Origin: Promethearchaeota archaeon
GTDB taxonomy: Archaea > Asgardarchaeota > Lokiarchaeia > Sigyniarchaeales > SOKP01
Direction: 5' to 3'
Assembly: GCA_048940925.1 (NCBI GenBank)
Contig: JBHLOC010000003.1
Location: forward strand, 64,001-128,000
Length of the DNA stretch: 64,000 bases
Position 1 is the stretch's first letter. Each line of letters starts with the position of its first letter. The position numbers and the translations under genes were made by a program. Below, in pieces: positions 18,344 through 36,860 of the stretch. The notes beneath the pieces were generated by a model. It searched no databases and had not been told where the DNA came from. It saw nothing but the letters and a program-made list of their open reading frames with translations.

Positions 18344-19672
18344 ATGTCTAATCAAGATGAATTAGAATTTAAGAAATCATATCCATATATCTTCTCTTTT
18401 TTTTATTTAGCTCAAGGATTATATAATGGGATACAATATATTGTAATTCCGTTTTGGTTAATAAGTATGATGACAATCGATTTAGCAGTGATTCTAGGTA
18501 TATTTTCAATTACTGTTATTCCTTGGGCGTTAAAATTTTTAATTGGGTTATTCAATGATAAATTTGGTTCAGAAAAGTATGGAAGGAGAAAATTATGGAT
18601 TTTAATTTTTGGTGTATATGCTGGGATTTGGTTTATGATAACAGGTTTTACAATAAATTTGCAATCAAGTAACACGATTCTTGATTATATTTTACTCTGT
18701 GCTCTTATGTGGAATATTGGCATCGCTGTTTCTGACACTTCTTTAGATGGACTAATATTAGATGTCACACCAAAAGAAAAACTAGGAAAAGTTCAAGGAT
18801 ACACTTGGGCAATGAATCTATTTGGAAACGCTGGTGGAGGTATTATTTTAGGAGCATTATTTCTAGCTTTTAATGCAATACCTTTATTGTTTGTCTTTGA
18901 AGGTTTTCTATTAATAATCTCAAGTTTTTTCCCCTTTTTTGTTAAAGAAAAACCACTTCCAGAAGAAATTCATGTTTGGAAAAATGTAAAAACAATTATT
19001 ACTAAGGGAAAAAACTGGAAAGCCTTCACATTTTCATTTTTAGATTCCATTCCCTATGGAATTGTGACAATAACTTATACAATCTTAATTTTGCTTTATG
19101 CCCCAAATTCTCCTATTTCAGGTCCAATAACTTCTTTATCTTTGAAAGGTTTGGCATTAGAAGCCTTTTTAATTTATGTGCTTCTCGGTGCAATTAATGG
19201 TGCTGGTGTAATATTAGGAAGTATAATAACTGGAAGATTTGCAGACAAGAATCGTAGATTTGCGGTATATATAGCAAATATTATGTATATACCCTTTTTA
19301 ATTTTATGCGTTTTATTCCGTGGACCATATATTCTTGGTGGTATAATGATCTTTTTATTAGGCGTTGGTCAGGGCGCTCTTACAGCATCTTATCAATCTA
19401 TTCGGGGAGATCTTTCAAAACAGTATCCAGAATTAAACAGTACTTATTTTGCAATAGTTATTTCTTGCCTAAATCTTGGTCAATCTGTAGGAATGGCAAT
19501 TACCAGTGGACTAATAACGATTTTTTCTTCATTATTTAATGAATATTATGAGACATTTTTCTTTATAATGTTAATTATGGCTGGATTTCAATTTCTCAGT
19601 TTTTTAATATTCTATACTATTAATCGAAAAGAATATGAGCATAAAGATATAATACTGAAAAATAATGATTAA
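18344..19672 (+). CDS. MFS transporter (AmpG/BT1-like)
   Basis: PWALKFLIG..NDKFG...GRRK.W, SDTSLDG; ~12 TM. Confidence 0.88.
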   Translation: MSNQDELEFKKSYPYIFSFFYLAQGLYNGIQYIVIPFWLISMMTIDLAVILGIFSITVIPWALKFLIGLFNDKFGSEKYGRRKLWILIFGVYAGIWFMITGFTINLQSSNTILDYILLCALMWNIGIAVSDTSLDGLILDVTPKEKLGKVQGYTWAMNLFGNAGGGIILGALFLAFNAIPLLFVFEGFLLIISSFFPFFVKEKPLPEEIHVWKNVKTIITKGKNWKAFTFSFLDSIPYGIVTITYTILILLYAPNSPISGPITSLSLKGLALEAFLIYVLLGAINGAGVILGSIITGRFADKNRRFAVYIANIMYIPFLILCVLFRGPYILGGIMIFLLGVGQGALTASYQSIRGDLSKQYPELNSTYFAIVISCLNLGQSVGMAITSGLITIFSSLFNEYYETFFFIMLIMAGFQFLSFLIFYTINRKEYEHKDIILKNND

Positions 19673-19715
19673 AGTTACTTTTTATTTTTTCTATAATTCA
19701 ATAATTTGAGGCTAA

Positions 19716-21290
19716 ATGAATAAAGTAAACAGAGTAATTTTTTGCATCATTGATGACGTCAGAGCAGAATTCTTTTTTAATTTAATGCGTAAAGGATTCC
19801 TCCCTAACATGAAGAAATTAATGAAGCAGGGGATTTATTCAGAGAATTGTATAACAGATTTTCCTCCCATTACGTATCCTACCCAAGTATCTCTTTTAAC
19901 AGGAACTTACACGGGAAATTATAAACAAGAATTATGTCATGGCATTCCCTTAATGAATTGGATGGATCGTGATTATTCTCCCCCAATTCTGAGAAGTTAT
20001 GCTGCTATAGATATGCAAATCTATAAGCTTAATAGCGAAATTGAGAATAATTGTAAAACTATTCTTGAAATGATAGATGAAGGTAATACTGTAAGTATAA
20101 CACAATTTATCAGCAGAGGATCAAATTATTTTTTTCCTGAAAGAAAAACAACACTTGCTTTGTACTATCTCATTTTGAAGTATTTTCCAAGTGTAAAGAG
20201 AAGGCTTATTAGAGCTAATTCGGGAGTAGTGCAAAAATTAATTGGAGTTTTTGAGAAACCAAAAAGGTTTTTTGAAAACTCAGAACCTCCTATCTGCTCT
20301 TTAATATGGTTTATATCCTCTGATTTATTAATGCATGCCTATGGTTATGATTCAAAAATCTATAAATTAAACATTTTGCATATTGATAAAGTCATTGGAA
20401 TATTAATGGATACTTTAGAAAAAATGGGATATTTAGATGATACTGCAATAGTAATTACTTCAGATCATGGTAATTATAAAGCAAATAAAGTGGGAAATTT
20501 AACAGATTTTTTTACGCAAAATAAGCTTACTCATTATCATCCTCGCAAAAATTTAAAGGGAAATATGAACATTTCTGAATATGCGGGTGTAGGATTTTTC
20601 AATTTCAAAGGTCTAACTGATCCAGAAGATATTTATAAATGGGCACGTCCTTCTCTTAAGGAGCTTGAAAATTATGGTCCAAGAAGAATAAATTTGTTAG
20701 AAAAATTATTTAAAATAGAAGGAAGTCTTATGATGTATTATAGAGATGATGAGAATACACATAAGAAGGGAGTTATTTATTTAAAGAAAAAATGCAATCA
20801 AAATGGTAAAACTTTATCTGGAACAATTGAATATCAAGGACGAGGTAATGAATATAAAACTTGTTATATATCTGATGATAGTGATAACGATATTTTTGGC
20901 TATTTAAATGATGATAAAGCAAGAGGATTAATGGATAAAAGATTTCATTCTATAAATGAATGGTTGGAAGCAACTTATCATCTTAATTTCCCTATATTTC
21001 CTGATTTAATTCCTCGCCATTTTAAAAATCCCAGAAGCTGCGATATAATATTGAGTAATGATGGCACTGTTGTTTTTAACATCCATCATGGAAAACAAAA
21101 AAATAAGAATTTATATGACCATGATCTTGGGCTAAGAAAATGTATGGTTGTTCCCCTAATAATTGGAGGCTCATTGGAAATTCCCTCCAAACTTATTCCA
21201 TTTTGTAAAATTACAGATATAGTTCCAACGTTGTTGAAACTTTTAGGAAAAACACCACATAAAAGTGTTATGGGAGAAAGCCTAATATGA
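19716..21290 (+). CDS. Alkaline phosphatase superfamily, nucleotide pyrophosphatase/phosphodiesterase
   Basis: IIDD, FPPITYP (Thr nucleophile), DLLMH, TSDHG, C-terminal DH. Confidence 0.85.
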   Translation: MNKVNRVIFCIIDDVRAEFFFNLMRKGFLPNMKKLMKQGIYSENCITDFPPITYPTQVSLLTGTYTGNYKQELCHGIPLMNWMDRDYSPPILRSYAAIDMQIYKLNSEIENNCKTILEMIDEGNTVSITQFISRGSNYFFPERKTTLALYYLILKYFPSVKRRLIRANSGVVQKLIGVFEKPKRFFENSEPPICSLIWFISSDLLMHAYGYDSKIYKLNILHIDKVIGILMDTLEKMGYLDDTAIVITSDHGNYKANKVGNLTDFFTQNKLTHYHPRKNLKGNMNISEYAGVGFFNFKGLTDPEDIYKWARPSLKELENYGPRRINLLEKLFKIEGSLMMYYRDDENTHKKGVIYLKKKCNQNGKTLSGTIEYQGRGNEYKTCYISDDSDNDIFGYLNDDKARGLMDKRFHSINEWLEATYHLNFPIFPDLIPRHFKNPRSCDIILSNDGTVVFNIHHGKQKNKNLYDHDLGLRKCMVVPLIIGGSLEIPSKLIPFCKITDIVPTLLKLLGKTPHKSVMGESLI

Positions 21291-21980: not shown

Positions 21981-22007
21981 CTATATAGAATATATAGGAT
22001 ATATAGA
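21981..22007 (+). promoter_or_regulatory. Candidate phosphate-regulon box (3 x 9-bp NTATATAGR)
   Basis: CTATATAGA-ATATATAGG-ATATATAGA; near-identical copy upstream of pstS. Confidence 0.55.
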
Positions 22008-22251
22008 TGGATTATTCAAGATTTATTTAATACATATAATAAATATATCACTATATAATATTACTAATTGAATTAAAATAAGAAATAAAAGAAGTAGGTA
22101 TAGACAAAAGAGTTAACAGGTCTTATGAAGAGGCAACTTTTATTCTCACTAGTTTTAATAATTGGAATTGCTTTTGGTATAATCTTTGCTGTTATAGATA
22201 ATTATATCAGAGCTTTTGTATAGAGAAAAATTAAAAAATAACCTATAAATT

Positions 22252-23376
22252 ATGAAGCCCTCTCGTAAAGCGAAGAAACGTGGAAAAAGTGCCATTATAA
22301 TTGTTTTTTTAATTGGATTCATAGTAGGTTTGCTCTCTACTAATTTCGTTCTTGAAAGTAGAAAAAAAAAAATCACTATTACAATTATCTATAGCTCTGA
22401 AAAAGCAAGCTGGATGACTATAGCATATTCAGATTTTATGTCTGAGTGGCAAAAAACACACCCTGATGAAAAAATAACCATTGATATGCATCCATATGGT
22501 TCTTCAGACTCAATAATCAGTATCTTAAATAATGAAATTTATCCAACAATTTGGAGCCCTGCAAGTTCTATTTGGTTGCCAATCTTAAATACTAAATGGA
22601 GAGATTTAACAAAAATAGAAGAACCAATTGTAAATATTAGTGAAGCTATAAAAATAATTTATTCACCAGTTGTAATTGCTACATGGCAATCTTTTAATCA
22701 ATCCTATAATATCAGAGGATTTTCTGACATTTATAATTTGAGTGTAAATCCAAATGTAGATGTTAAAATGGCTCATACAGATCCTAGATTGTCAAATTCT
22801 GGTTTTATGAGTGTTATAATGGCATTATCTGCAGCATCAGGGGTTTCTTCAGTAAATTTATCTATAGCAGAGCTCACCAACACAACTAATCAAAAATGGT
22901 TTAAAAAATTTGAATCAAGCGCAGTATTATATGGAAAATCTACTGGATTTTTAGCCCGTTATATGCAAAGTGAAGGACCCCGTGCCTTAAATATAGTGTT
23001 CTTATATGAAAATTTAATAAGGGATATTTCAAGCACATCAACAGGGGGAAAAGTTATTGCTATTTATCCTAAAGAGGGAACATTACTTAGTGATCATCCT
23101 TTTTGTATATTAAATGCTGAATGGGTAACTCCTGAACGAAGAGCCGTAGCTGAGGCTTTTCTTAATTTCCTTAATGAAAGTGATACAGTTAAATCTGCTA
23201 TTGAATATGGTTTTAGACCCATCAATCCTTCAATCCCTTTAGATCCGAATGTATTCAATTATGAAACTAATGGAATTGCTCTTGAATTTAATGTACCTAT
23301 ATTAGAGCCACCAAATGAGGGAAATGTTTTATTAAAAATCCCTGATTTTTGGCTACTTACTAAAGCAACAGGATAA
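22252..23376 (+). CDS. ABC transporter substrate-binding protein (SBP_bac_11-like), N-terminal membrane anchor
   Basis: YSSEK, WSPASS, DPRLSNSG, GKSTGFL, YPKEGTLLSDHPF, YGFRP. Confidence 0.8.
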   Translation: MKPSRKAKKRGKSAIIIVFLIGFIVGLLSTNFVLESRKKKITITIIYSSEKASWMTIAYSDFMSEWQKTHPDEKITIDMHPYGSSDSIISILNNEIYPTIWSPASSIWLPILNTKWRDLTKIEEPIVNISEAIKIIYSPVVIATWQSFNQSYNIRGFSDIYNLSVNPNVDVKMAHTDPRLSNSGFMSVIMALSAASGVSSVNLSIAELTNTTNQKWFKKFESSAVLYGKSTGFLARYMQSEGPRALNIVFLYENLIRDISSTSTGGKVIAIYPKEGTLLSDHPFCILNAEWVTPERRAVAEAFLNFLNESDTVKSAIEYGFRPINPSIPLDPNVFNYETNGIALEFNVPILEPPNEGNVLLKIPDFWLLTKATG

Positions 23377-23427
23377 TATTTAATTATTATTAAATGAAAG
23401 AAAGATTCTACTAAAAAACATCAGAGT

Positions 23428-25074
23428 ATGAGGAAAAATAAAAGCATAGATGATAGTAAATTAATACTTAGTCTAAAAATAGATAGATTTTTTTCCAAAC
23501 CAGTATATAGAAAGAGTTTAGATGTTATCACTATAGGCTTTTTTATTTTAGTAATTATTGGTCCAATAATTAACATATTTTCTACAATTCTTTTGAATAT
23601 TCCCGCAATAAACCATGATGTGTTTAATGACGAATTATTGGGCAATTTACAGTGGTTTAATATCTTAAAATCCCTTGGATATTCTTTCACAATTGCTTCT
23701 ATTGCTGTCGGAGTAGATATTATAATAGGTTTTCCTATCTCAATTATTTTAACGCGATACAATTTTAGAGGTAAAAAATTTCTTGATGCATTAGTGGATT
23801 TACCTATGGCTGTGCCTACAAGTGCGTTAGGATTTTCTGTATTGTTATTTTGGGCAGTATTTGGAATTGAACCAGGATTTACTTTAATACTTCTTGGTCA
23901 TATCGTATTCACATTTCCATATATAGTACGAAATATTAAAATTGTGCTAGAAAAGACATCTACATTATATGAAGATGCGGCTCTTACTCTTGGTGCTCCA
24001 GGATTCACTGTATTTCGAACTATTACTTTACCTTTAATGAAAGAGGGGTTAATAGCTGGAGCTATACTTTCCTTTACAAGAAGTCTAGGTGAGACAGGTG
24101 CGACACTTATACTTTCAGGTTTGATAGAAACAGCTCCAATTTTGATAGTGGGATTTAGAAGACAATTAGAACTCCCCTCTGCTTCATTATTAGCTGGAAT
24201 TTTAATTGCAATATCAATTTTACTCTTATTTTCAGTTAAATTTTTTACTCGAAAAGCTGGATTTCCAATTAAATCTGTCTGGCCAAGGATTGAACGCTTT
24301 TTAAGTCATAAATATTTAAGATATTTAAGAGATATTTTAGCTTTATTAATCCTTTTAGGTCTGATTTTATTTCCTGCCTTTTATATTATAACTCAAATTA
24401 TAGGTGAAGATTGGATATCAGAATTATTTTTAGGGCAAGATTATAAATGGGTATATCTATATATAAGTATTATATATTCAATAGAAATAGGAGCTTTAGC
24501 TGTTTTAATTAACCTTATATTTGGTATCCCATTTGCTTTCATTATTACAAAAAGAAAGTGGGGTAAAGTTATAACATTTCTTGATACCATTCTTGATATC
24601 CCAATTGCTATTCCCTCAGCAGCTTTAGGATTTGCTACTTTCTTATTTTGGGGTCCCGCAGGATTCGGACTTTTTAAATCTGGTTTTTATATGATTTTAT
24701 TTGTACATATTGCATTTACTTTTCCCTATATGGTTAGACCAATTATTGGGGTATTGGAAGCTTCAGATAAAGGAGTAGAAGAAGCTGCTCGTACTTTAGG
24801 CGCTTCTAATTTAACTGTCTTTAGAAGAATAACCCTTCCAAATATAAAGCAAGGAATCATTGCTGGATGTATCATGGTATTTACACGTTCTTTAGGAGAA
24901 ACAGGGGCTACTATTGTAGTTATGGGCAGTATTAGAACAGTGCCGGTATTAATTGTAGATTGGGTAGAAAGTAATGCGTATGCTTCCGCAATTTTTGCGA
25001 GTGTTGTCGTTATAATTATTAGTGCAATATTGATTTTTGCTTTACGAGCTGTTACAAAAAGGAGGTTAATGTAA
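23428..25074 (+). CDS. ABC importer permease, two fused ModB/CysT-like domains
   Basis: Two EAA loops (EDAALTLGA, EEAARTLGA); two DLP.A.P and FTRSLGETGAT repeats. Confidence 0.9.
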   Translation: MRKNKSIDDSKLILSLKIDRFFSKPVYRKSLDVITIGFFILVIIGPIINIFSTILLNIPAINHDVFNDELLGNLQWFNILKSLGYSFTIASIAVGVDIIIGFPISIILTRYNFRGKKFLDALVDLPMAVPTSALGFSVLLFWAVFGIEPGFTLILLGHIVFTFPYIVRNIKIVLEKTSTLYEDAALTLGAPGFTVFRTITLPLMKEGLIAGAILSFTRSLGETGATLILSGLIETAPILIVGFRRQLELPSASLLAGILIAISILLLFSVKFFTRKAGFPIKSVWPRIERFLSHKYLRYLRDILALLILLGLILFPAFYIITQIIGEDWISELFLGQDYKWVYLYISIIYSIEIGALAVLINLIFGIPFAFIITKRKWGKVITFLDTILDIPIAIPSAALGFATFLFWGPAGFGLFKSGFYMILFVHIAFTFPYMVRPIIGVLEASDKGVEEAARTLGASNLTVFRRITLPNIKQGIIAGCIMVFTRSLGETGATIVVMGSIRTVPVLIVDWVESNAYASAIFASVVVIIISAILIFALRAVTKRRLM

Positions 25075-25076
25075 AA

Positions 25077-26222
25077 GTGCCAACTATAGAATTAATTAAT
25101 GTTACAAAAACATATAATGAGGGGAGAGTTCTTGCCGTTGACAATATTTCCATAAAAATAGAAGATGGTGATTATATCTTTTTAATTGGACCTACCGGAT
25201 GTGGTAAGACAACAACACTCAGAATGATAGCAGGTTTAGAACAACCGACTAAAGGGAAAGTTTTAATAGATGGAAAAAATGTTGAGGGTATTCCTCCAGA
25301 AGATAGAGATATGGGATTTATTTTTCAAAATTTTGAAATATTCAATCATTTAACTATATGGGAAAATGTTACATTTGGCTTAGAAATGCGGGGTTATAAT
25401 GACCAGTATATTATTGATAATGCAGAAAAAGCTTTAGAAATCGTTGGTTTATTACAATATGCTGACGATTACCCAGACATTTTTGGTAACCCAGGGTTAC
25501 AGAAATTAGGAATAGCACGAGCTATTGCAATAGGTGCTAAGATTCTAATAATGGACGAGCCTTTAGGTTCTTTAGATCCAAAAATTTCGAAAGTTTTCCG
25601 TCATGAGCTTCGGAATTTAATTAAAGATTTAGGTCTTACTGCTATACATGTAACACATAACCAAGAAGAGGCAATGGCTATTGCTGATAAAATCATTATC
25701 ATGAGAGCGGGACGAATTCTTCAAATGGGAACTCCTTATGAATTATATGAAAATCCAGATACTATTTTTGTAGCCAACTTTCTAGGAGAGACTAATTTTC
25801 TTCAAGGTTTTGTCTTAAAATTACTAGATAATGAATTAATGGAAATTTGGATACGTTTAGGGGGACCTAAGTTAATTTGTCTTAATTTTAATAAGAAATT
25901 TAATTTGGATGATAATATTGTGATTTCATTTCGTTTTGAAGATGTATATTTATTTTCTAAAGATTATAATTTTGAAAAAAGTCAATATGAATGGACTAAA
26001 ATGCAATTTTTTGAAGCAATTCTAGAAACATCTAGATTTATTGGAGCTACGAAGAGATTTTATTTAATCTTAGATAATGGTGATAAATTTATATCAATTA
26101 AACCAGGAAATTTTGAAGAAAATTTTATTCCAGGAGAGAAATTAATAATTGGGATTCATCAAGATGATATCAATGTATTTAAGGCTCCAGATAACCTTCT
26201 TTATGAATTGTCATTATCATAA
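25077..26222 (+). CDS. ABC ATP-binding protein (PotA/CysA-like, TOBE), degenerate signature motif
   Basis: GPTGCGKT, FQN, MDEP, VTHN; LSGGQ replaced by FGNPG. Confidence 0.9.
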   Translation: MPTIELINVTKTYNEGRVLAVDNISIKIEDGDYIFLIGPTGCGKTTTLRMIAGLEQPTKGKVLIDGKNVEGIPPEDRDMGFIFQNFEIFNHLTIWENVTFGLEMRGYNDQYIIDNAEKALEIVGLLQYADDYPDIFGNPGLQKLGIARAIAIGAKILIMDEPLGSLDPKISKVFRHELRNLIKDLGLTAIHVTHNQEEAMAIADKIIIMRAGRILQMGTPYELYENPDTIFVANFLGETNFLQGFVLKLLDNELMEIWIRLGGPKLICLNFNKKFNLDDNIVISFRFEDVYLFSKDYNFEKSQYEWTKMQFFEAILETSRFIGATKRFYLILDNGDKFISIKPGNFEENFIPGEKLIIGIHQDDINVFKAPDNLLYELSLS

Positions 26223-26241
26223 CAAAAAAAGTATTAATATT

Positions 26242-27465
26242 ATGGTACATATAAATTTGAAAAATGTGACTAAATCTTTTAGAAATATTAAAGTTCTTAA
26301 TGAAATTTCACTTGAGATTAAAGATAAAGAGTATTTCATAATCCTTGGACCTACAGGAGCAGGTAAAACTACATTACTTAAGATTATTGCAGGACTTATT
26401 AGACCTGACTCTGGACAAATATTGTTTAATAGTAAAGATGTGACTAAAAAAACTGCGGGAGAGCGTAATATAGGATTTATGTTTGAAAATTATGCGTTAT
26501 TTCCTCACATGAATATTGTGGAGAATATATCGTATAGTGGAAGAGTCCATGCACGAGATTCCGCACAAACTCAAACCTTAGTTGATCAAATTTTGATGAT
26601 GACTTTGCTTACAGGTAGAAATGATGCTATACCTGAAGAACTAAGTGGAGGAATGAAGCAAAGAGTAGCATTATGTCGATCTCTTTTGAATCTCGAACAA
26701 TCAAAATTGTTAATTTTAGATGAGCCTCTAAAAGCGCTTGATGCTGGCCTTAGGAATAGCCTGAGAAGAGAATTGTTGCTAATGGCAAAATCAAAAGAAT
26801 TAGAATTGACAGTATTACATGTTACTAATAATGAACGTGAAGCAATGATGGTCGCCGATAGAATCGCGTTATTAAATGAAGGGAAAATAGTTCAAATTGG
26901 AAGCCCTTATGAAATCTATTATGAGCCTAAAAATCTTTTTGTAGCGTACTTTATGAGTGAAATTAACTACTTTAATGGAATTTGCGTAAAAAACACAGAG
27001 CCTAAGTGGGATATTTATCGTAAATCAGAACAAGGAGATAGATTTTTCGCACAAATTCATGAAAGTTTAGTTCCATTACCATTAGACATAGGATTAAATG
27101 AAATTTTTGCGGGATACTTGAAAGAGTCATTATATAGTGAAATTGGGCAGGGAGATAAAATATTGTTAGTTGTTCGCGCAAATCATATGAAAATACGACT
27201 TGGTAATCGTATTAACGAAAAAAAAAATTCAATTTTAGGTAAAATAATTCGACGTAAATTTATGGGAGTATTTTATCGATTTGAAGTATTAACAGAGATA
27301 AGTAATCAAGAAAAAAAAATTGTGGTTATTAGACCTGCTACTTATGAAATCCATGATAGATTTTTAGAGGGATCAGAAGTAACAGTATATTTCCCTAAAG
27401 AATTAGGAATAGTATTCAAACATCCAGGTGATGATGTAATAAAAGAAGTATTAAAATTAGAATAA
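26242..27465 (+). CDS. ABC ATP-binding protein (PotA/CysA-like), degenerate Q-loop and H-switch
   Basis: GPTGAGKT, LSGGM, LDEP; Q-loop FEN, H-switch VTNN; ATG 26242 preferred over the overlapping 26149 start. Confidence 0.9.
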   Translation: MVHINLKNVTKSFRNIKVLNEISLEIKDKEYFIILGPTGAGKTTLLKIIAGLIRPDSGQILFNSKDVTKKTAGERNIGFMFENYALFPHMNIVENISYSGRVHARDSAQTQTLVDQILMMTLLTGRNDAIPEELSGGMKQRVALCRSLLNLEQSKLLILDEPLKALDAGLRNSLRRELLLMAKSKELELTVLHVTNNEREAMMVADRIALLNEGKIVQIGSPYEIYYEPKNLFVAYFMSEINYFNGICVKNTEPKWDIYRKSEQGDRFFAQIHESLVPLPLDIGLNEIFAGYLKESLYSEIGQGDKILLVVRANHMKIRLGNRINEKKNSILGKIIRRKFMGVFYRFEVLTEISNQEKKIVVIRPATYEIHDRFLEGSEVTVYFPKELGIVFKHPGDDVIKEVLKLE

Positions 27466-27522
27466 GAATTTTAAATATTTTTAAAAATGATAACGAATAT
27501 ATAATTAAAGGAGAGTAGATTT

Positions 27523-28209
27523 ATGAGTTCCTTATTACGTTATTTTAGTACTAGAAATGAAGAAAACGCAATGAACATGACTTTAATTCATACTCAGAAA
27601 GTCCTTGAATGTATAGTTGAATTTGAGAAGGGTTTATCTTTCCTGCTTGAAGAAAAAAATATTGACCTTGCATTAAAAGTTTTTTTTAGAGTAGATGAAT
27701 TAGAACATCAAGCAGACAATATTCGTAGAAATATTCTAAATATGTTATCCCAAGCAGAACTTCCTTCGAAAATACGTGAGAATTTTATGCACCTTATTAA
27801 AAGAATTGATGATATAGCAAATGCAACAAATGCAAGTTCTAGAATTCTGATCTCTATGAATCATAAAGACTTTATGAATTTAGGGGAAGATGTTCATAAA
27901 AATATCCTAGATATCTCAAGAGATTCAGTAGAAGCTGTTAAAAAGGTTAATCTTATGGTAGATAAACTTATCAAAGCAGAAGAAGAAAAAGAAATCCAAA
28001 GTTTGGGAGAAGAAGTTAATGTTTTAGAACATGAATGTGATGAAAAGCGTTATGCAATAAATCGGAGCTTAGTTTTGAATAATCTTGATATTAACCCATT
28101 TAGTGCAATAATAATTCATAATTGTATATCTGCTATGGAGGCTATTAGTGATAACGCTGAAGATGTTGCTGATTATATTATTATGTTAACACTAGCAAAA
28201 AGAACTTAA
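27523..28209 (+). CDS. DUF47 / PhoU_div phosphate transport regulator
   Basis: LEHQAD..RR, RIDDIAN, LEHECD, EAISDNAEDVAD. Confidence 0.88.
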   Translation: MSSLLRYFSTRNEENAMNMTLIHTQKVLECIVEFEKGLSFLLEEKNIDLALKVFFRVDELEHQADNIRRNILNMLSQAELPSKIRENFMHLIKRIDDIANATNASSRILISMNHKDFMNLGEDVHKNILDISRDSVEAVKKVNLMVDKLIKAEEEKEIQSLGEEVNVLEHECDEKRYAINRSLVLNNLDINPFSAIIIHNCISAMEAISDNAEDVADYIIMLTLAKRT

Positions 28210-28243: not shown

Positions 28244-28864
28244 TTAATTATTCTCTTTATTTCTTTTTTGCAGATTAGAATTCTTTTTTAAAAGTTTAAT
28301 TGATTCTTCTCTCGCTTTTAGAAGATTTCGTTCTTTAACTCCTTCCATTTCTTTAGACGGTAAGACTTTTTCCTTTATCACCTTTTTAAAAAGTAAATAT
28401 TCCTCTTTTCTTGAAATAAATGGATCAACCTTCTCTTCATGTATGAATTCTTCTATAGATGTATTTTTTCCATTACAATTCCCTTCAGTAAGATCGAATC
28501 GATTATTTTTATACACTAAAAAACAATGCACCATTGGTACATAAGGAATGTTATATTTTTTCAGAATTTCATTTGTACCATGTGAGATTTCTTCTGTAAA
28601 TTTATAAATTCCCACATGTTTATAGAGTGGTATGTCAAGTTCTTCCGCAAGTCCTGCAATGACAGCATGTTTAGTTGTACAAGTTCCCATATTTTCTTTA
28701 AACAAAATCATCTTGTCTTCATAATCTGTATTATATCCATAATCAATATTATGGATAAGATTACAGGCTTCTCTAAATGAATTAATTCCTAGATTTATAA
28801 ATTTCTTTGATAATTGTCCAACAGGTTTAATTTCAGCATCAGGCAAATTATTATATGTATCCAT
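28244..28864 (-). CDS. Transglutaminase-like (Cys-His-Asp) protein
   Basis: YGYN, GTCTTKHA, VHCFL, FDLT. Confidence 0.6.
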   Translation of the reverse strand: MDTYNNLPDAEIKPVGQLSKKFINLGINSFREACNLIHNIDYGYNTDYEDKMILFKENMGTCTTKHAVIAGLAEELDIPLYKHVGIYKFTEEISHGTNEILKKYNIPYVPMVHCFLVYKNNRFDLTEGNCNGKNTSIEEFIHEEKVDPFISRKEEYLLFKKVIKEKVLPSKEMEGVKERNLLKAREESIKLLKKNSNLQKRNKENN

Positions 28865-29015: not shown

Positions 29016-29669
29016 TTAAGAAATCTCTTTATGTTTACCAGTTACCATATAGTGAACTTTTTCAGCAATTTTACAAGCATTATCACCACATCTTTCTAAA
29101 TATCGCGCAATCATGGCAAAAAAGGCACAAGGAGTGATTGTTTTAGGATCTTCCATCATATAGGTCAAACATTCTCGAAAGATTGACCATCTCATTTCAT
29201 CAATTTCATCATCCCTCTCCTTAAATTTTTCGATGTACTTTATATCAGCCTCATCAAAAGCTTCTATTGCATTTTCAATCATCAGTTTTACATGTTCCCA
29301 CATATGTTCTAAGTTAATAAATGGGGCAGGATATGGATGTTTTTTTGAAATTTCCTCAACAACTGAAGCAATATCTTTTCCATATCTCCCAATCCTTGCA
29401 AGGTAGGTAATTGTCTTTAAAATAGTTGCTAATCTTCTGAGATCTATTGCCATTGGTTGATAAAGCGCTATTAATTTTAATGCTTTTGACTCTATATTTG
29501 CATCAAATTCTCTAATCTTATATTTCTTTTCCACCGTAGTTTTAGCTAGTTCAATATCTTGAGTCGCTAAAGCTTTCATTGAATCATCTAACATACTCAA
29601 AGCTAAATCAGCCATTTGAACAACTTCTTTTTTTAATGTAAAAATTTCTCGGTGCAATTCTTTTGCCAT
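29016..29669 (-). CDS. phoU: Phosphate signalling protein PhoU
   Basis: QPMAIDLR, LARIGRY, RYLERCGDNA; directly downstream of pstB. Confidence 0.95.
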   Translation of the reverse strand: MAKELHREIFTLKKEVVQMADLALSMLDDSMKALATQDIELAKTTVEKKYKIREFDANIESKALKLIALYQPMAIDLRRLATILKTITYLARIGRYGKDIASVVEEISKKHPYPAPFINLEHMWEHVKLMIENAIEAFDEADIKYIEKFKERDDEIDEMRWSIFRECLTYMMEDPKTITPCAFFAMIARYLERCGDNACKIAEKVHYMVTGKHKEIS

Positions 29670-29679
29670 TAAAATTCAC

Positions 29680-30450
29680 CTAACCAAATCTTCCTGTTAT
29701 ATAATTTTCAGTTAAATGTTCTTTTGGATTCTCAAATATCTGAGTTGTTTCCCCAAATTCAATTAATTCCCCTAAATACATAAAACCTGTAAAATCACTA
29801 ATTCTTGCTGCTTGTTGCATATTATGGGTTACAATTACAACAGTCCATTCTTTCTTCAATTCAAGTATTAGTTCTTCAATTTTCCCAGTAGCAATTGGAT
29901 CTAAAGCTGAACATGGTTCATCCATTAAAATTATCTCAGGTTCAACTGCTAATGCTCTAGCTATGCACAATCTTTGTTGTTGTCCACCGGAGAGACTTGC
30001 TCCAGATTTTTCTAAATCATCCTTAACTTCATCCCATAATTGTGTTAATTTTAAATATTTTTCAACCATCATTTCTAATTTTTCTCTATTTCTTGTACCC
30101 TTTAGTTTAAGACCAACTATAACATTATTAAAGATTGACATAGTTGGAAACGGATTTGGTTTTTGAAAAACCATTCCTATTTTCCTCCTAACTAAAACAG
30201 AATCAATTGATTTATAATTATTGTTATTACCATATATATTATAATTGTCCATTGAAATGCTGCCGGTTACTTTAGCATTAGGTATTAGATCATGCATTCT
30301 ATTCATACTTCTAAGTAAAGTTGTTTTACCGCATCCCGATGGACCAATAATCGCAGTAATATGGTTTTTTTTAATATTCAAATTAATATTGTTTAAAACA
30401 TGTTTATCGCTAAACCATACATTTAAATTTTCAATTTTTAATTTAATCAA
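29680..30450 (-). CDS. pstB: Phosphate ABC transporter ATPase
   Basis: [50 protein letters not shown]. Confidence 0.97.
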
Positions 30451-30462
30451 AATTCATCACAT

Positions 30463-31311
30463 CTAATATTTTTCCCTTGTTAAAATTCTAACCACGATAT
30501 TTAATAAAAGAACCAAAAATATTAAAACTAGCGCCGCACCCCAAGCTTTTGGCCAATCTATACTCACAAATGGAGATTGCGATGAGTTAAAAATTGTTAA
30601 TGGAAGCGCTGCTGTTGGCTCAAAAAAACTAGCGAAAAAGAATCTACTTCCAAGTATAGTTAATAGCAAAGGAGCTGTTTCTCCTGCTACTCTAGCAATT
30701 GCGAGTAATATGCCTGTTACTATCCCTTTTTTTGCTGTTGGAACAGTTATAGTTAAGGTTGTCTTCCATTGAGCTATTCCTAAAGCTAGAGCAGCTTCTC
30801 GAACCGTAGAAGGTACTATTTTAATAGATTCTTCTGTTGCTCTTGTTATTAAAGGAATCATCATTATTCCCAAAGCAAAACCACCAGCTAAAACTGACCA
30901 TCCCGTAATAGTTACAATCAATATCCAAGTAAAAATGCCGATAACAATTGAGGGCATGTTAGATAGAACATCATTTAAAAAACCAGCAGCAAAACTAATT
31001 TTACTATATGGATATTCTGCTAAAAAAATTCCAGAAAAAACGCCTATAGGTATTCCCAGTAAACATGCAAGCATAATTATTATTAATGTTCCTTGGATAG
31101 CAGGTCCAATTCCTCCTCCTGTTTGCCCTAATGGCGAAGTTTCTTGTGTTAAAAAATTTATATTCATTTGACTAATTCCATTAATAATAATTTCGTATAA
31201 AATGCTAATTAAAGGTATTAAACCAATAATTAGGGCAAAAAAACAGAATGATATCATTAAATAATTCTTGAATTTTCTGACTTTAAATCTTGTTTCTTCT
31301 GAAAAAGCCAT
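30463..31311 (-). CDS. pstA: Phosphate ABC transporter permease PstA
   Basis: PSIVIG, REAALALG, ARVAGETAPL; ATG 31311 preferred (track start 31326). Confidence 0.95.
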   Translation of the reverse strand: MAFSEETRFKVRKFKNYLMISFCFFALIIGLIPLISILYEIIINGISQMNINFLTQETSPLGQTGGGIGPAIQGTLIIIMLACLLGIPIGVFSGIFLAEYPYSKISFAAGFLNDVLSNMPSIVIGIFTWILIVTITGWSVLAGGFALGIMMIPLITRATEESIKIVPSTVREAALALGIAQWKTTLTITVPTAKKGIVTGILLAIARVAGETAPLLLTILGSRFFFASFFEPTAALPLTIFNSSQSPFVSIDWPKAWGAALVLIFLVLLLNIVVRILTREKY

Positions 31312-31312
31312 C

Positions 31313-32323
31313 TTAAAACGTCTCAACTCCTTTGAATTTCCTCATAGTATATCGGATTATTAATCTTGCCGTAACATTAACAATTAAAGCCATTATTAAT
31401 AATACAAATCCTACCTCAATTAAAGCTGAAAGATAAACTTCTGGAGAACTAGCCTCCGTAAATTCATTAGCTACTAATGATGCTAAAGTATAAGTAGGAT
31501 CAAATAAAGAGTGAAATAGATTAAATGAGTTTCCAATAACCATCGTTACAGCCATTGTTTCTCCTATTGCTCGACCAAGTCCTAAAATCACCGCTCCTAT
31601 CACGCCTGATCGTCCATATTTTCTAATAATTTTTGTTGACTCCCATTTTGTTGCACCTAATGCTATAATAGCTTCTTTTTGACTCTTTGGAACCGCCGCA
31701 AATATATCTCGAGAAATGGCAGTGATAGTAGGAATTATCATAATTGCTAAGATAATTCCACCTGTTAAAACATTATATCCATGAGTTGCTCCTTGAAAAA
31801 TCGGGATAAAACCAAATATATTTTGAATGACGGGATATACATTTTGATTTAAAAATGGTATAAGGGTAAATATACCCCAAAGTCCATAAATTACACTTGG
31901 TATAGCTGCTAATAGTTCTACTAGAAATGAAACCCAAAAGTTAAATCTTTTTGAAGTGAATTCAGAGAGAGTTAAAGCAATTCCTATGCTTATAGGAAAA
32001 CTTATAAGAATTGCAATTAAAGAGGTAACTAGAGTTCCTAACATCGGAGGTAAAATTCCAAATACAGGAGGAGCGTTAGGATCTGCGGGAGTTGGGTTCC
32101 ACTCGGTTCCCCAAAGAAATTCAAATCCGTAAGTTTCAATTGAAAGATAGGAACGCAAAAAAAGAAAGAGAATCATTAATCCAATTATTATAAATATTAA
32201 AAATGATATGAACCCTAAAAAAGATTTAAAAATTAAATCTCCACTAATTTTTCTTTTTAAAATGAATTTTTTTTTTTTATTTTTTTGATTATTTTTAGGG
32301 ACTATAGATAATTGTTCTTTCAT
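31313..32323 (-). CDS. pstC: Phosphate ABC transporter permease PstC
   Basis: ELLAAIPSVIYGLWG, ALGATKWE, GRAIGETMAVTMVIGN. Confidence 0.96.
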   Translation of the reverse strand: MKEQLSIVPKNNQKNKKKKFILKRKISGDLIFKSFLGFISFLIFIIIGLMILFLFLRSYLSIETYGFEFLWGTEWNPTPADPNAPPVFGILPPMLGTLVTSLIAILISFPISIGIALTLSEFTSKRFNFWVSFLVELLAAIPSVIYGLWGIFTLIPFLNQNVYPVIQNIFGFIPIFQGATHGYNVLTGGIILAIMIIPTITAISRDIFAAVPKSQKEAIIALGATKWESTKIIRKYGRSGVIGAVILGLGRAIGETMAVTMVIGNSFNLFHSLFDPTYTLASLVANEFTEASSPEVYLSALIEVGFVLLIMALIVNVTARLIIRYTMRKFKGVETF

Positions 32324-32410
32324 TAGGCTTTTTATACCATTAAACTATTAAGATATCTTTTGAGTTTCAAAATAAAATACAAAAAAAAATATTATTAAAT
32401 TACTAATTCA

Positions 32411-33532
32411 TTATGCCCAAGTATTTACGATTTCCCCATCAAATATTATAGAACGTAAACTCACTTCATTTATCGCTATTACCGCATCAGGAATTTCAAC
32501 ATAGTGTAAGCCTTCCGCGTAGGATTGAGCTTGATGAGTACACCACCATAACCAATTTGTTAAAGCCTTTGCTTTTGCTAATGTCATACCAGGAATTACA
32601 TTCAGTTCCTTATAAACTAGTATATAAGAAAATGAAGAAATAGGATAAGCATCTCCAGCTCCAGGACCAGTTTTAAAATAAGTGCCAACAGGTTCCCAAT
32701 TTTCATCGCCAGCAGGTAAAGTAACAGCAGCATAAGCTGCTGCTTTTGCTATTGTTGTAGTATTAGCTAACGAATAAATTCCAGCTCTATTTTGAATTAA
32801 AGCATAATCAATACCACTTTCAAGTGCGTATGCTAATTCAATATAACCAAGTGAATATTCATTAGCTTGAAGATATGCCGCAATACCAGAATTTCCTTTT
32901 TGACCTAAAGTATCTGCATGCCAATCTATGGTTTTGGATGCCCCATACGTAGAATTCCACATTGCACTCTCATCAGATAAAAAGGTGGTAAATACAGCTG
33001 TAGATCCACTTGAATCTGATCTGTGAACAACAGTTATTTCATGACTTGGTAAAGTAACTGCAGGATTCAAAGCGGTTAAGTTGGCATGATCCCACATGGT
33101 AATCAACCTCGCAAATATTTGGGCGATTACAGGTCCAGTTAAATTAATAGGTACTGATATTCCCGGAAGATTATAAGCAACTAAAATTCCTCCTATTGTC
33201 ATGGGTAATTGTAAAGTATTCGGCGCTGCTTCCCATTCAGATGTCTTCATTGGTGGATCTGAAGCACCAAAATCTACTGTTTTTGCAGTATGTTGCTGAA
33301 TTCCCCCACCACTACCAATACCCTCATAGTCCACTTGGATTCCTGTGAGACTATTAAACTCTAAAGACCATTTTTGATATAGAGGTGCTGGGAAAGTAGC
33401 ACCTGCTCCACTGAGTCTCATTGGCGTCTCAGGTTGAGTTAGAACAAACATTCCAGCACTAAACCCAATCACCGTTCCAACTAAGGCAATTGCTAAAATA
33501 TATATTATTGATCGTTCTCGCATTTTAAACAC
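32411..33532 (-). CDS. pstS: Phosphate-binding protein PstS
   Basis: GAGATFPAPLY, GSGGG, DFGASD, RSDSSGST, YPISSF; start may be ATG 33523. Confidence 0.96.
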   Translation of the reverse strand: MFKMRERSIIYILAIALVGTVIGFSAGMFVLTQPETPMRLSGAGATFPAPLYQKWSLEFNSLTGIQVDYEGIGSGGGIQQHTAKTVDFGASDPPMKTSEWEAAPNTLQLPMTIGGILVAYNLPGISVPINLTGPVIAQIFARLITMWDHANLTALNPAVTLPSHEITVVHRSDSSGSTAVFTTFLSDESAMWNSTYGASKTIDWHADTLGQKGNSGIAAYLQANEYSLGYIELAYALESGIDYALIQNRAGIYSLANTTTIAKAAAYAAVTLPAGDENWEPVGTYFKTGPGAGDAYPISSFSYILVYKELNVIPGMTLAKAKALTNWLWWCTHQAQSYAEGLHYVEIPDAVIAINEVSLRSIIFDGEIVNTWA

Positions 33533-33632
33533 TTTTATTATGAAACTTAAGTTTTTGTTTAAATTTGGTTATAGAAAGGATTTGCTTATTCAATATAAGG
33601 AATCTCGTCATAGTATATATTGAGTTATTTAC

Positions 33633-33652
33633 CCTATATATTCTATAGAGAT
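33633..33652 (-). promoter_or_regulatory. Candidate phosphate-regulon box upstream of pstS
   Basis: Minus strand ATCTCTATAGAATATATAGG, 19/20 identical to 21979-21998. Confidence 0.55.
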
Positions 33653-33801
33653 AGACTTTATTGATCTTCCCAACGGCATCTAAGTATTGTTATTGAGTTA
33701 ATAGTCTCTGTTGTTTTTTATCAAAAATATCAAACTATATAGAGAATACTGAAATAATTATACTCTATTGCAAAGTTTTATAATTGATTTAGTATTGTCA
33801 T

Positions 33802-33917
33802 ATATATAGAATATAGAAAGTATATATAATATATAGTTTAAGTATAAAATAATCCTATTATTTATTCTAAATAACTAAATTGAGTTAATATTGATATTTT
33901 TTATTCTATATAGAATA
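33802..33917 (+). promoter_or_regulatory. Candidate phosphate-regulon boxes upstream of the AbrB-PhoU regulator
   Basis: Four phased 9-mers at 33802-33837 and a perfect palindrome TATTCTATATAGAATA at 33902-33917. Confidence 0.5.
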
Positions 33918-33954: not shown

Positions 33955-34959
33955 ATGAGTTTACATATAGAGACAAGAAAAGTTCAGAAGACAGGTGGAT
34001 CCAGTTATATCATTTCCCTTCCTAAAGTATGGATAGATAAGCATGGTGTTGAAAAGAATGATACATTAGGTATTCTTAGCCAACCAGATGGGAATTTACT
34101 TATTACTCCCAAGATAAATTCTGAAGAATATATAAGAAGTAAAATCTTTGATATTGATGAAGTAACCGATTCACAGTATTTATTTCGGCTTTTAATCGGA
34201 GCCTATATTATGGGTTATACTATTATAACAATAAAATCAAGTAAGAAGTTTGAACCTTTTATAAGAGAATGCGTTACAAATTTCACCCAAATTGCTATAG
34301 GTCCAGAAATCATAGAAGAATCTAATAATTTCATAACTATAAAAGATTTGCTTAATCCTAAGGAAATGCCATTTGAAAAGACAATAAAAAGGATGTATAT
34401 TTTGGTCCAAAGTATGCATGAAGATGCTATAAAAGCCCTTGATACAGGGGATAAGCCTTTAGCAGAAGAAATTATTAAGAGGGACGATGATGTTGATAGA
34501 CTACACTGGTTAATCGGTCGTCAGGCTCATATTGTGCTCAGAGACATTATTTTATGTCAAAAAATGGGGATTACATTGGAACAAGCGAGTCATTTTCATC
34601 AGATGAGCCGTTTTTTAGAAAGGATAGGAGATCACGCCTCAAAGATTGCAAAGAATGTGTTAATCATTCTAGAACATAAAATTGATGAACAACTTAATAA
34701 AGAAATCAAAGTAGCAAGTAAAGTATCGTTGGACTTATTAAATAAAAGCCTTGATGCATGGCTTCAAAAAAGTATTACTTTAGCGAATGAAAATATTGAA
34801 GAAATAAGGGATTTGATCTCAACTACCGAAAAAATAAGTCTTAATACCAATGGCAGTGCTCAAGTTTCAATAGCAATAGGATACATTCTTGAATCTATAA
34901 GGAGAACTAGTGAATATGCGGGAGATATATGTGAAATTATAATTAATAATTTAATATAA
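33955..34959 (+). CDS. Archaeal phosphate uptake regulator (AbrB/SpoVT DNA-binding domain + PhoU domains)
   Basis: RKVQKTGGSSYIISLPKVW; RDDDVDRL, LERIGDHA; divergent from pstS. Confidence 0.93.
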   Translation: MSLHIETRKVQKTGGSSYIISLPKVWIDKHGVEKNDTLGILSQPDGNLLITPKINSEEYIRSKIFDIDEVTDSQYLFRLLIGAYIMGYTIITIKSSKKFEPFIRECVTNFTQIAIGPEIIEESNNFITIKDLLNPKEMPFEKTIKRMYILVQSMHEDAIKALDTGDKPLAEEIIKRDDDVDRLHWLIGRQAHIVLRDIILCQKMGITLEQASHFHQMSRFLERIGDHASKIAKNVLIILEHKIDEQLNKEIKVASKVSLDLLNKSLDAWLQKSITLANENIEEIRDLISTTEKISLNTNGSAQVSIAIGYILESIRRTSEYAGDICEIIINNLI

Positions 34960-35038: not shown

Positions 35039-35731
35039 TTATATTTTTTCGGTACCAATTAACAATACCATAATATAATCAGCAACAGCTTCTATTGAAT
35101 CAGATATCGCTTCAAGAATATCAAAAACATTTCCTGCAGTGAAAATAGTAAAAAAGTTAACCTTGTAATCAGTATCTTGAAGATTCTTTCTTAATTTAAT
35201 ATTAAGTAGATCTACTTCATGTTCCAGCTGATTAACTTGCTTAGCATAATCTTTTAAATGCTTTCTTTCTTCAAGTAAATCGATTACCATTTTATCTAAA
35301 AATTGAACACAATCAACTGTATTTTTCATCATTTCAGAGATTAGATTGATGGTTTCTATGCTGCTTTGTTCCCAAAATTTTAATGGAATGGTATTAACTC
35401 TACGAGCAACTCCCGTACAGCAATTTGCAACATCATCCATTCTTTTAATTAAATGTGATAAGTCTTGACGTACACTTGGATTTAATTCACCTCTTGAAAC
35501 ATCTTTTTGAATTTCTCTTCTTAATTTATCTGCATTTCTTTCTAAAAGATCAACTTCATGAAAAATTTCGTGAGATTTGTCAAGATCTTTTTCTTTTAAT
35601 AAAATTTGTAAACCAGTACCTAATTTTTTTACACATTCTTGAACTATTTGTGCGTGTTTAACGGACTTCTCCAACGCATTGACTGCAGTCTCTCGCTTTA
35701 AATATTCAATTAAAGATCCTATCCATATCAC
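35039..35731 (-). CDS. DUF47 / PhoU_div protein
   Basis: LERNADKLRR, RMDDVAN, LEHEVD, EAISDSIEAVAD; downstream of the Pit gene. Confidence 0.88.
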   Translation of the reverse strand: MIWIGSLIEYLKRETAVNALEKSVKHAQIVQECVKKLGTGLQILLKEKDLDKSHEIFHEVDLLERNADKLRREIQKDVSRGELNPSVRQDLSHLIKRMDDVANCCTGVARRVNTIPLKFWEQSSIETINLISEMMKNTVDCVQFLDKMVIDLLEERKHLKDYAKQVNQLEHEVDLLNIKLRKNLQDTDYKVNFFTIFTAGNVFDILEAISDSIEAVADYIMVLLIGTEKI

Positions 35732-35800
35732 CTATTTTTTCTACTATATCTAAGTTCAATATAAATATATGTAATATATATATTTTTTATAATTGATCGA

Positions 35801-36838: not shown

Positions 36839-36860
36839 AATGAATCAAAATAAGTCATTT

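Follow-up and report, generated by a model that had tools for sequence, protein, structure and literature searches.

The window analysed here is a 64-kb stretch of the 4.8-Mb genome (about 29% G+C; genome completeness score 100%) of an Asgard archaeon of the Lokiarchaeia ('Promethearchaeota'). Our subject is a six-gene operon within it, at 22125-28209 on the plus strand, that encodes a predicted ATP-binding cassette (ABC) importer together with a protein of the PhoU_div (DUF47) family. We propose, with a probability of roughly 60%, that the operon specifies a phosphate-regulon importer for orthophosphate or a very close phosphorus oxyanion, with the DUF47 protein as its PhoU-like partner. Two observations carry the proposal: the DUF47 gene is a constant partner of the transporter genes, and the operon has promoter repeats in common with phosphate genes. 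Because of these, a second, independently evolved phosphate-type importer seems the most likely reading. The window proteins were scanned with Pfam and NCBIfam profiles, and the features on which the argument turns are these:

21981-22006, no strand: three 9-bp-phased (C)TATATAG repeats, a candidate phosphate-regulon operator (pattern counts and conservation)
22125-22223, plus strand: 32-residue single-pass membrane peptide, first gene of the operon (protein-level conservation; no Pfam family)
22252-23376, plus strand: substrate-binding protein (SBP) of 374 residues with an N-terminal transmembrane anchor, SBP_bac_11-type class II fold without a vWA domain (PF13531, 49.7 bits)
23428-25074, plus strand: fused double permease of 548 residues with two BPD_transp_1 halves (best NCBIfam models: sulfate, ModB, CysT, WtpB)
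25077-26222, plus strand: ATPase 1 (ABC_tran), with a degenerate signature
26242-27465, plus strand: ATPase 2 (ABC_tran), with a consensus signature
27523-28209, plus strand: PhoU_div (DUF47, PitR-like), last gene of the operon (PF01865, 71.4 bits)

The co-oriented run of PF13531, PF00528 (twice) and PF00005 (twice) is that of a type I binding-protein-dependent ABC importer, and this is what the operon is predicted to encode. An earlier note on this DNA had described the SBP, the permease, the two ATPases and DUF47 as co-oriented and closely spaced, and each gene lies where it was placed, with spacers of 2-57 nt. The start of ATPase 2 is the ATG near 26242, not the overlapping TTG at 26149, since alignments of orthologues begin at residue 1 of the protein read from 26242. 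The small peptide gene was absent from the earlier list. The open reading frame at -127 to -28 from the SBP start, which ends 28 nt before the SBP gene, is kept at the protein level in nearly all Lokiarchaeia loci, with the pattern G-x3-G-I-x-F ... D-N-Y-I-R-S-F-I; Ca. Lokiarchaeum ossiferum has a 36-residue equivalent, read by eye. Because size, position and C-terminal motif are the same in nearly all of these loci, we regard it as a real first gene of the operon, and the peptide is probably an extra subunit of the importer.

How constant is the association of these genes? About 1500 relatives of the SBP are present in a large protein collection, and the top 120 are all from Asgard archaea, at 63-81% identity; we use an SBP identity of at least 63% to define the close clade. 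Of 61 relatives, 34 have the SBP, each as a single gene, and within the genus it is patchy (14 of 36). The window proteins were placed by tblastn on 20-kb stretches of 20 relatives and, in GTDB species genomes, on 80 loci. A gene order of SBP, fused permease, ATPase(s) and DUF47 is kept in the Lokiarchaeia, including Ca. Lokiarchaeum ossiferum and Ca. Harpocratesius, and likewise in Heimdall-, Hel- and Sigyn-type Asgard archaea and in the Bathyarchaeia. In the Thermoprotei there are weaker matches to the SBP and permease. Since the gene order recurs in about 100 loci of several archaeal phyla, the arrangement of the cassette is far from chance. The DUF47 gene adjoins the cassette, downstream or divergently upstream, in 61 of 63 evaluable loci.

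The operon DUF47 consists of a single PF01865 domain (71.4 bits against a cut-off of 24.4) and falls short on TIGR00153, with 57 bits against 104. On PF01895 it collects 26.6 bits with no single stretch passing, and so is not a two-domain PhoU. It is 33% identical to the PiT-linked DUF47 encoded at 35039-35731, and in a tree the ABC-linked and PiT-linked copies are split by a 100/100 branch; the tree is unrooted and its PiT-linked copies all come from one narrow clade, so that it shows distinct paralogue sets, not ancestry. The PhoU-type accessory proteins are each tied to one family of orthophosphate importer, in the pairings PhoU-Pst, PitR (PhoU_div)-Pit and NptA-PhoU, and in Staphylococcus aureus phosphate signalling is controlled by PitR (PMC13170248). 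In-operon partners of this type have been described only for orthophosphate importers (PMC13170248). These pairings support our reading of an in-operon PhoU_div as a mark of an orthophosphate importer. That DUF47 normally accompanies Pit transporters, as stated in the earlier note, agrees with the same literature and with the PiT-DUF47 pair in the window.

To judge by its genes, the wider region is a phosphorus island. The divergent ppa and the nearby pst genes that had been reported are there, with one unknown gene (unk206) between the operon and pst:

18344-19672, plus strand: MFS transporter, an island neighbour
19716-21290, plus strand: cytoplasmic Phosphodiest enzyme of the alkaline-phosphatase superfamily (PF01663), directly upstream; no signal peptide or transmembrane segment
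21337-21864, minus strand: inorganic pyrophosphatase gene ppa, divergent (profile match; adjacency not conserved)
28244-28864, minus strand: unk206, a protein of 206 residues, present in 10 of 27 evaluable close-clade loci
29016-33532, minus strand: canonical phoU-pstB-pstA-pstC-pstS operon (NCBIfam equivalogs above cut-off: PhoU, PstB, PstA, PstS)
32411-33532, minus strand: the true PstS of the genome, part of the pst operon
33625-33836, no strand: more phased TATATAG repeats, at 33625-33650 and 33801-33836 in the pstS/AbrB-PhoU spacer (motif scan)
33955-34959, plus strand: AbrB(SpoVT)-PhoU fusion, a likely phosphate-responsive transcription factor (PF04014 and PF01895)
35039-37532, minus strand: unk223-PiT-DUF47b operon, a Pit-type phosphate transporter with its own DUF47 (Pfam)
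35039-35731, minus strand: PiT-linked DUF47 paralogue, part of the PiT operon
36861-37532, minus strand: unk223, 223 residues, first gene of the unk223-PiT-DUF47 operon (no family match)

The TATATAG array, which the earlier note had missed, lies about 120 bp upstream of the small open reading frame and 245 bp upstream of the SBP start. A two-repeat pattern allowing at most two mismatches has 16 matches in the window against 3.0 expected, and 11 of these fall in the spacers of the SBP operon and of pstS/AbrB-PhoU. At no more than one mismatch the whole genome has 25 matches, and its two densest clusters are the SBP-operon spacer, the densest of all, and the pstS/AbrB-PhoU spacer; the genome-wide count does not exceed that of a reversed control (25 versus 23), so that only the clustering at the phosphorus island is significant. 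Of 45 evaluable close-clade loci, 42 keep the array at -200 to -290 of the SBP gene amid diverging flanks, and in relatives (among them L031-L036 and L049-L096) repeats also precede AbrB-PhoU, unk223-PiT and pst. Being common to the SBP operon and to bona fide phosphate genes, the repeats are candidates for an archaeal Pho box, one limited to the close clade. Beyond that clade, possible exceptions are the SBP/AbrB-PhoU spacer of L042 and a weak two-mismatch match at -365 in the same locus (as L114); when the regions upstream of pst and of the cassette in L. ossiferum were compared by eye, no convincing common element was found.

What other genes keep company with the cassette? AbrB-PhoU, PiT or pst is present in the fetched flanks of 24 of the 27 evaluable close-clade loci, one of four from other Lokiarchaeia and two of seven from other Asgard archaea; two of four Bathyarchaeia loci have a phosphorus neighbour, AbrB-PhoU in both. 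By family, the 27 close-clade loci have PiT (20), unk223 (19), Phosphodiest (15), unk206 (10), AbrB-PhoU (9), pst (3) and ppa (1). AbrB-PhoU adjoins the cassette in the Bathyarchaeia (L105, L117), in Helarchaeota (L114) and in L119 and L128. The Phosphodiest gene is adjacent in none of the distant loci, where the other annotated neighbours are unrelated housekeeping genes, plus one molybdopterin oxidoreductase (L040). From the neighbours found across close and distant loci, the conserved core is the transporter with DUF47, AbrB-PhoU is a satellite that recurs across phyla, and ppa is incidental. Thus the earlier idea of a new phosphorus-uptake system, built on a vWA-less SBP, a fused permease and DUF47, gains from its context: the survey of relatives proposed with it does turn up linkage to phosphorus genes, both in the close clade and in several distant lineages, and the repeats add to this. 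Its preference for pyrophosphate does not fare as well. The divergent ppa had made pyrophosphate look attractive as ligand, and outside the window only its nearest relative (L031/L051) has ppa next to the cassette, as no distant locus does; because the adjacency is not conserved, we do not favour pyrophosphate.

To what lineage does the binding protein belong? The AF2 model of the SBP has a pLDDT of 94, and its top Foldseek matches are the sulfate-binding proteins 5um2 and 1sbp. In an exhaustive VIA fold search 1sbp (Z 27.8) is tied with the thiamin-binding 2qry (Z 27.7), SubI reaches Z 25.8, and the remaining list is made up of cluster-D binders such as PotD/F, AfuA and FbpA. Searched against PDB sequences, the SBP family profile is significant only for sulfate-binding proteins (1sbp, 1.4e-8; SubI, 4.5e-7; 5um2, 9e-7), and the iron-binding protein 1y4t comes out at E 0.34. 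Alignment by hhalign to the Escherichia coli proteins ranks Sbp (E 2.4e-4 over 252 columns) about level with ModA (E 4.7e-4, 174 columns), above PotD (E 4e-3, 57 columns) and far above PstS (E 0.28, 36 columns), and in the ESM Atlas the nearest neighbours outside the SBP's own family are sulfate-binding clusters. The protein, the sole SBP_bac_11 gene product of the genome, has no NCBIfam match, including ModA, WtpA, TupA and PstS, and no PF12849. Since its nearest relatives in sequence and fold are Sbp, SubI and ModA, we take it to be an oxyanion-type binding protein of the sulfate/molybdate lineage and not a relative of PstS.

Some correspondences with the Sbp pocket can be proposed. The sulfate ligand Ser45 of Sbp aligns with the invariant S84, and the SSGG anion loop of Sbp with S181-N182-S183-G184; only these two are reasonably placed, as the HMMER and hhalign registers differ by 1-5 residues around Y227-Y252. 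The HMMER alignment also sets Trp192 of Sbp against Tyr252, in a segment that is shifted in hhalign, so we do not lean on that match. Invariant or near-invariant residues specific to the family are E50, K51, H175, D281 and H282, and D177 is also listed among its specific acidic and histidine residues.

The permease tells a similar story. Its N-terminal half is CysT-like and its C-terminal half ModB/CysW-like, and orthologues are 43-94% identical across loci. It reaches 241.3 on the sulfate subfamily model TIGR00969 (cut-off 240) and 211.5 on the ModB equivalog TIGR02141 (cut-off 182.6), in both cases only as a sum over the two fused halves. It remains below the cut-offs for CysT (204 vs 246), CysW (180 vs 329) and WtpB (201 vs 340) and far below those of the Pst models (80.3 bits vs 196 for PstC, 70 vs 193 for PstA); the sulfate and ModB scores of the halves are about twice their PotC score. 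The ATPases obtain 128 bits on PstB (cut-off 343) and 217-235 on WtpC (cut-off 440), and they score well on PotA models. None of the SBP, the two ATPases and DUF47 reaches an NCBIfam cut-off.

The two ATPases differ from each other in a complementary way, and the pattern is constant in the motifs extracted from about 60 orthologous pairs. ATPase 1 keeps Walker A and B, the Q-loop glutamine and the H-loop histidine and has a degenerate signature, FGNPG in the window instead of LSGGQ, and WGNGD, LSAPE and others elsewhere. ATPase 2 keeps Walker A and B and a consensus signature, LSGGM; its Q-loop glutamine is replaced by glutamate and its H-loop histidine by asparagine (glutamine in Hel-type loci). 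A head-to-tail dimer of the two would therefore have one consensus and one degenerate ATP site. Those Bathyarchaeia loci that have just one ATPase gene (L110, L118, L122) retain the canonical form of every motif, so that the degeneracy must have arisen after duplication. Among type I importers, the cassette thus offers a case of a degenerate ATP site, and the single-ATPase versions of the Bathyarchaeia are at hand for an evolutionary comparison.

How do these findings bear on a phosphate substrate? Several of them weigh against it. The SBP, permease and ATPases are nearer in homology to sulfate, molybdate and tungstate systems than to Pst, and no part reaches a Pst equivalog threshold. Sulfate-binding proteins exclude phosphate by means of a pocket without hydrogen-bond acceptors, as known from Quiocho's work; the classic feature that discriminates phosphate from sulfate is a carboxylate acceptor. 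Some PiT-family proteins carry sulfate, as does CysP of Bacillus subtilis, and because of this linkage to DUF47 is not an absolute marker of phosphate. Many distant loci have flanks without any phosphorus gene other than DUF47, and the repeats were not found in the loci searched outside the close clade, which were from other Lokiarchaeia, the Bathyarchaeia and Heimdall-type archaea. Finally, the cassette and Pst are not complementary: within the genus, four of the five Pst-bearing genomes also hold the cassette.

The distribution of Pst across the 61 relatives, all genomes of Lokiarchaeia, can be looked at more widely, with PstA taken as present at the TIGR00974 cut-off, which 15 of the 61 pass and two more just miss. 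Pst is present in 13 of the genomes with the cassette and absent from 21; where the cassette is absent, Pst is present in four genomes and absent from 23. Two closed genomes, G044 (Ca. Harpocratesius) and G050, are among those that have the cassette alone. As 21 of 34 cassette-bearing relatives are without PstA, the cassette is often the only ABC-type candidate for phosphorus uptake. Several relatives encode PstC and PstA as a single fused frame of about 700 residues.

Could the cassette be an importer of the phosphate regulon for some other phosphorus compound? The candidates would be phosphite, hypophosphite, pyrophosphate, short polyphosphate and thiophosphate, and also any small ester of phosphate or phosphonate that is afterwards processed in the cytoplasm, for instance by the Phosphodiest enzyme. 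With Pst and PiT at hand for orthophosphate, a third system could be meant for a different phosphorus source, and the cytoplasmic Phosphodiest gene lies directly upstream in 15 of the 27 close-clade loci. The sugar-phosphate binders AfuA and VcA0625 are among the fold matches, and in the window ppa is divergent from the operon. Against these stand the absence of Phosphodiest from every distant locus, the adjacency of ppa in no more than one of 27 close-clade loci, the lack of a phosphite dehydrogenase, C-P lyase or phosphonatase among the neighbours examined, and the restriction of described in-operon PhoU-type partners to orthophosphate importers (PMC13170248). The absence of PstA from most cassette genomes fits a main rather than a niche phosphorus source. 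An ester or phosphonate, also suggested in the earlier note, is not favoured in particular, with bare small oxyanions as the ligands of the closest SBP relatives and with PhoU-type partners known only beside orthophosphate importers. We consider that a phosphorus compound of this kind is rather unlikely to be the substrate.

The ancestry of the parts raises a different alternative, an importer of sulfate or thiosulfate, or of molybdate or tungstate, in which the PhoU-like protein and the phosphorus neighbours would reflect cross-talk among oxyanions or clustering without common function. Such an importer would fit the closeness of the SBP to Sbp, SubI and ModA, the permease scores on sulfate, ModB and WtpB models and the molybdopterin oxidoreductase beside the cassette of L040. 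It would also fit a genome in which this SBP is the sole SBP_bac_11 protein and which has 15 genes for AOR-type tungstoenzymes. The same genome, however, has a separate TupA/TupB/WtpC-like operon on contig C5 (9500-13700, with a second PBP_like_2 gene at its head), beside a sulfite-oxidase-like molybdopterin enzyme. TupB-sized matches, judged by frame length and score, occur in members of the genus that lack the patchy cassette. The ATP sulfurylase Sat (PF01747) was not found in this genome with its completeness score of 100%, in which there are only weak APS-kinase-like P-loop matches; CysDN was not searched. These results suggest that the rival anions are covered by a Tup-like system or unused. 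Since the NCBIfam cut-offs passed at all are those that the permease passes as a sum of halves, and since linkage of DUF47 and AbrB-PhoU across phyla and the pstS-type repeats point to phosphate, we find a sulfate, molybdate or tungstate importer quite improbable. A polyamine, ferric iron or thiamine importer, like the cluster-D systems PotABCD, FbpABC and ThiBPQ, is very unlikely: Fbp and Thi systems typically have a fused double permease too, PotF/PotD, FutA/FbpA and TbpA stand high in the fold lists, the ATPases resemble PotA, and the many invariant Tyr, Trp, Glu, Asp and His residues of the SBP could form a cation or metal site, but the SBP profile is significant for sulfate-binding proteins alone, the PotD alignment spans just 57 columns, the permease halves prefer sulfate and ModB models to PotC, and the conserved neighbourhood has no iron, thiamine or polyamine genes and a PhoU-family linkage that such a substrate would leave unexplained.

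How might an orthophosphate importer of this kind work? We envisage a type I importer of the SulT/ModABC-like (CysPTWA/ModABC) lineage that archaea have placed under phosphate control. The membrane-anchored SBP, with an ectodomain of about residues 38-374, would capture a small tetrahedral oxyanion outside the cell, most likely orthophosphate or else a close phosphorus oxyanion, and hand it to the fused 12-helix permease. A heterodimer of the two ATPases, with one catalytic and one degenerate site, would power import, and the 32-residue membrane peptide would probably be an additional subunit. DUF47 may act as accessory brake and sensor, as PhoU does for Pst and PitR for Pit, reporting transport or phosphate status, probably to the AbrB-PhoU regulator. 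AbrB-PhoU in turn is a plausible binder of the phased TATATAG repeats before the SBP operon, pstS, its own gene and the PiT operon.

A more specific form of the proposal can also be stated. In it the cassette would be a fourth pair of orthophosphate importer and accessory regulator, one with no kinship to Pst, Pit or NptA and derived from a SulT/ModABC system, with an Sbp-like SBP retuned to phosphate from sulfate or molybdate, a DUF47 partner, a dedicated 32-residue subunit and an asymmetric ATPase heterodimer whose degenerate site would be regulatory, and it would be the sole ABC-type phosphate importer in most Lokiarchaeia that carry it. We hold this form tentatively and give it somewhat less than an even chance. 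We found no description of this transport system in the literature, of which our coverage was incomplete.

What would follow? Phosphate uptake is thought to rest on Pst, Pit and NptA, each with a PhoU-type partner (PMC13170248), and a fourth, archaeal pairing, if true, would mean more than one evolutionary origin of high-affinity phosphate uptake. Many genomes of Asgard archaea and Bathyarchaeia have no Pst, and such a pairing would account for the scavenging of phosphorus by these organisms in sediments; it would also be an example, provided by nature, of an Sbp-like pocket that has switched its anion selectivity. The cultured Ca. Lokiarchaeum ossiferum carries the cassette, at about 3.246 Mb of CP104013.1, so that the prediction can be tested.

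Several observations concern the surroundings of the operon. The MFS transporter and the Phosphodiest enzyme (18344-21290, plus strand) recur as a pair in some relatives (L085, L086), and may form a separate module of the island for organophosphate uptake and hydrolysis. Like the 32-residue peptide, unk206 and unk223 have no match in Pfam or NCBIfam; a G-x-C segment of unk206 aligns weakly (E 0.23) with the catalytic-cysteine region of a transglutaminase-like protein found at the same position in locus L037. Elsewhere in the window, a very long open reading frame of 2839 amino acids (45659-54178, plus strand) lies in a stretch of lower G+C content (about 24%).

The SBP belongs to a large family with members of quite another build. 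The earlier statement that this type of SBP is usually fused to a vWA domain is roughly right: of the 150 best cluster representatives 77 exceed 470 residues, and seven of eight long ones checked have vWA, but 55 stand alone. Relatives at E 1e-41 to 1e-23 are mostly of 550-650 residues with a C-terminal vWA (for example P0138, P0141, P0145 and P0147), and some have a Ser/Thr kinase or further SBP domains as fusion partners; stand-alone forms are found in the Chloroflexota. The vWA fusions are annotated as 'substrate-binding and VWA domain-containing' or, by KO transfer, as 'Ca-activated chloride channel family'. At 26 soil and sediment metagenome loci of an SBP-vWA representative (L153-L232), a stand-alone SBP_bac_11 paralogue follows in 19 and PspA/IM30 is nearby in five; no permease is nearby, and a scan of the six largest conserved neighbour families and a rarer one gave no TelA/XpaC. 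With no permease nearby and a stand-alone paralogue following, the SBP-vWA proteins do not look like transporter components. Among the loci surveyed, which leave out the neighbourhoods of the stand-alone Chloroflexota homologues, this type of SBP serves a transporter only in archaea. The cassette thus gives a handle on an SBP_bac_11 subfamily of more than 1300 clusters, bacterial vWA and kinase fusions included, that has no known ligand, and its ligand, if our proposal is true, would be the first hint at what the bacterial SBP-vWA proteins, which are widespread, might sense.

How does the cassette compare with known systems? It has in common with the bacterial SBP_bac_11-vWA proteins a homologous SBP domain and the motifs YSSEK, WSPAS, HTxPxxSNSG, STG, YEN and GFRP; they continue into a C-terminal vWA, whereas the cassette protein ends with the SBP fold. 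CysPTWA/Sbp and ModABC/WtpABC (TC 3.A.1.6 and 3.A.1.8) provide the closest relatives of the SBP (1sbp, SubI, 5um2, ModA) and of the permease halves, and the cassette ATPases share the C-terminal extension that characterizes the CysA, PotA and ModC group. The cassette departs from these systems in having the T and W halves fused, the ATPase duplicated and asymmetric, and PhoU_div in the operon. Its context is one of phosphate genes, not cys or mod genes, the sulfate-contact Trp of Sbp is a Tyr in the HMMER alignment, and its genome has its own Tup system and no Sat match.

With PstSCAB-PhoU (PhoT, TC 3.A.1.7) the likeness is one of organization: an SBP-dependent ABC importer whose operon ends in a PhoU-fold gene, in the same regulon neighbourhood and with repeats common to pstS. 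The function that we propose would also be the same, namely phosphate uptake in which an accessory protein acts as brake and sensor. The parts are different and at the level of families not homologous, as the SBP is SBP_bac_11 and not PBP_like_2, scores on PstC, PstA and PstB are below the cut-offs, and the cassette has PhoU_div, fused permease halves, two unlike ATPases with a degenerate site and an extra 32-residue peptide. PitA-PitR resembles the cassette in its accessory protein, which is of the same family, PF01865, with twofold E-H-x-x-D helices, and the island contains a bona fide PiT-DUF47 pair at a distance of 7 kb. Unlike PitR, the cassette DUF47 is joined to an ABC importer and is not adjacent to Pit (PHO4), a pairing outside the three-clade scheme for these proteins (PMC13170248). 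The pairing of PhoU_div with a non-Pst ABC importer would thus appear to be a fourth, undescribed combination.

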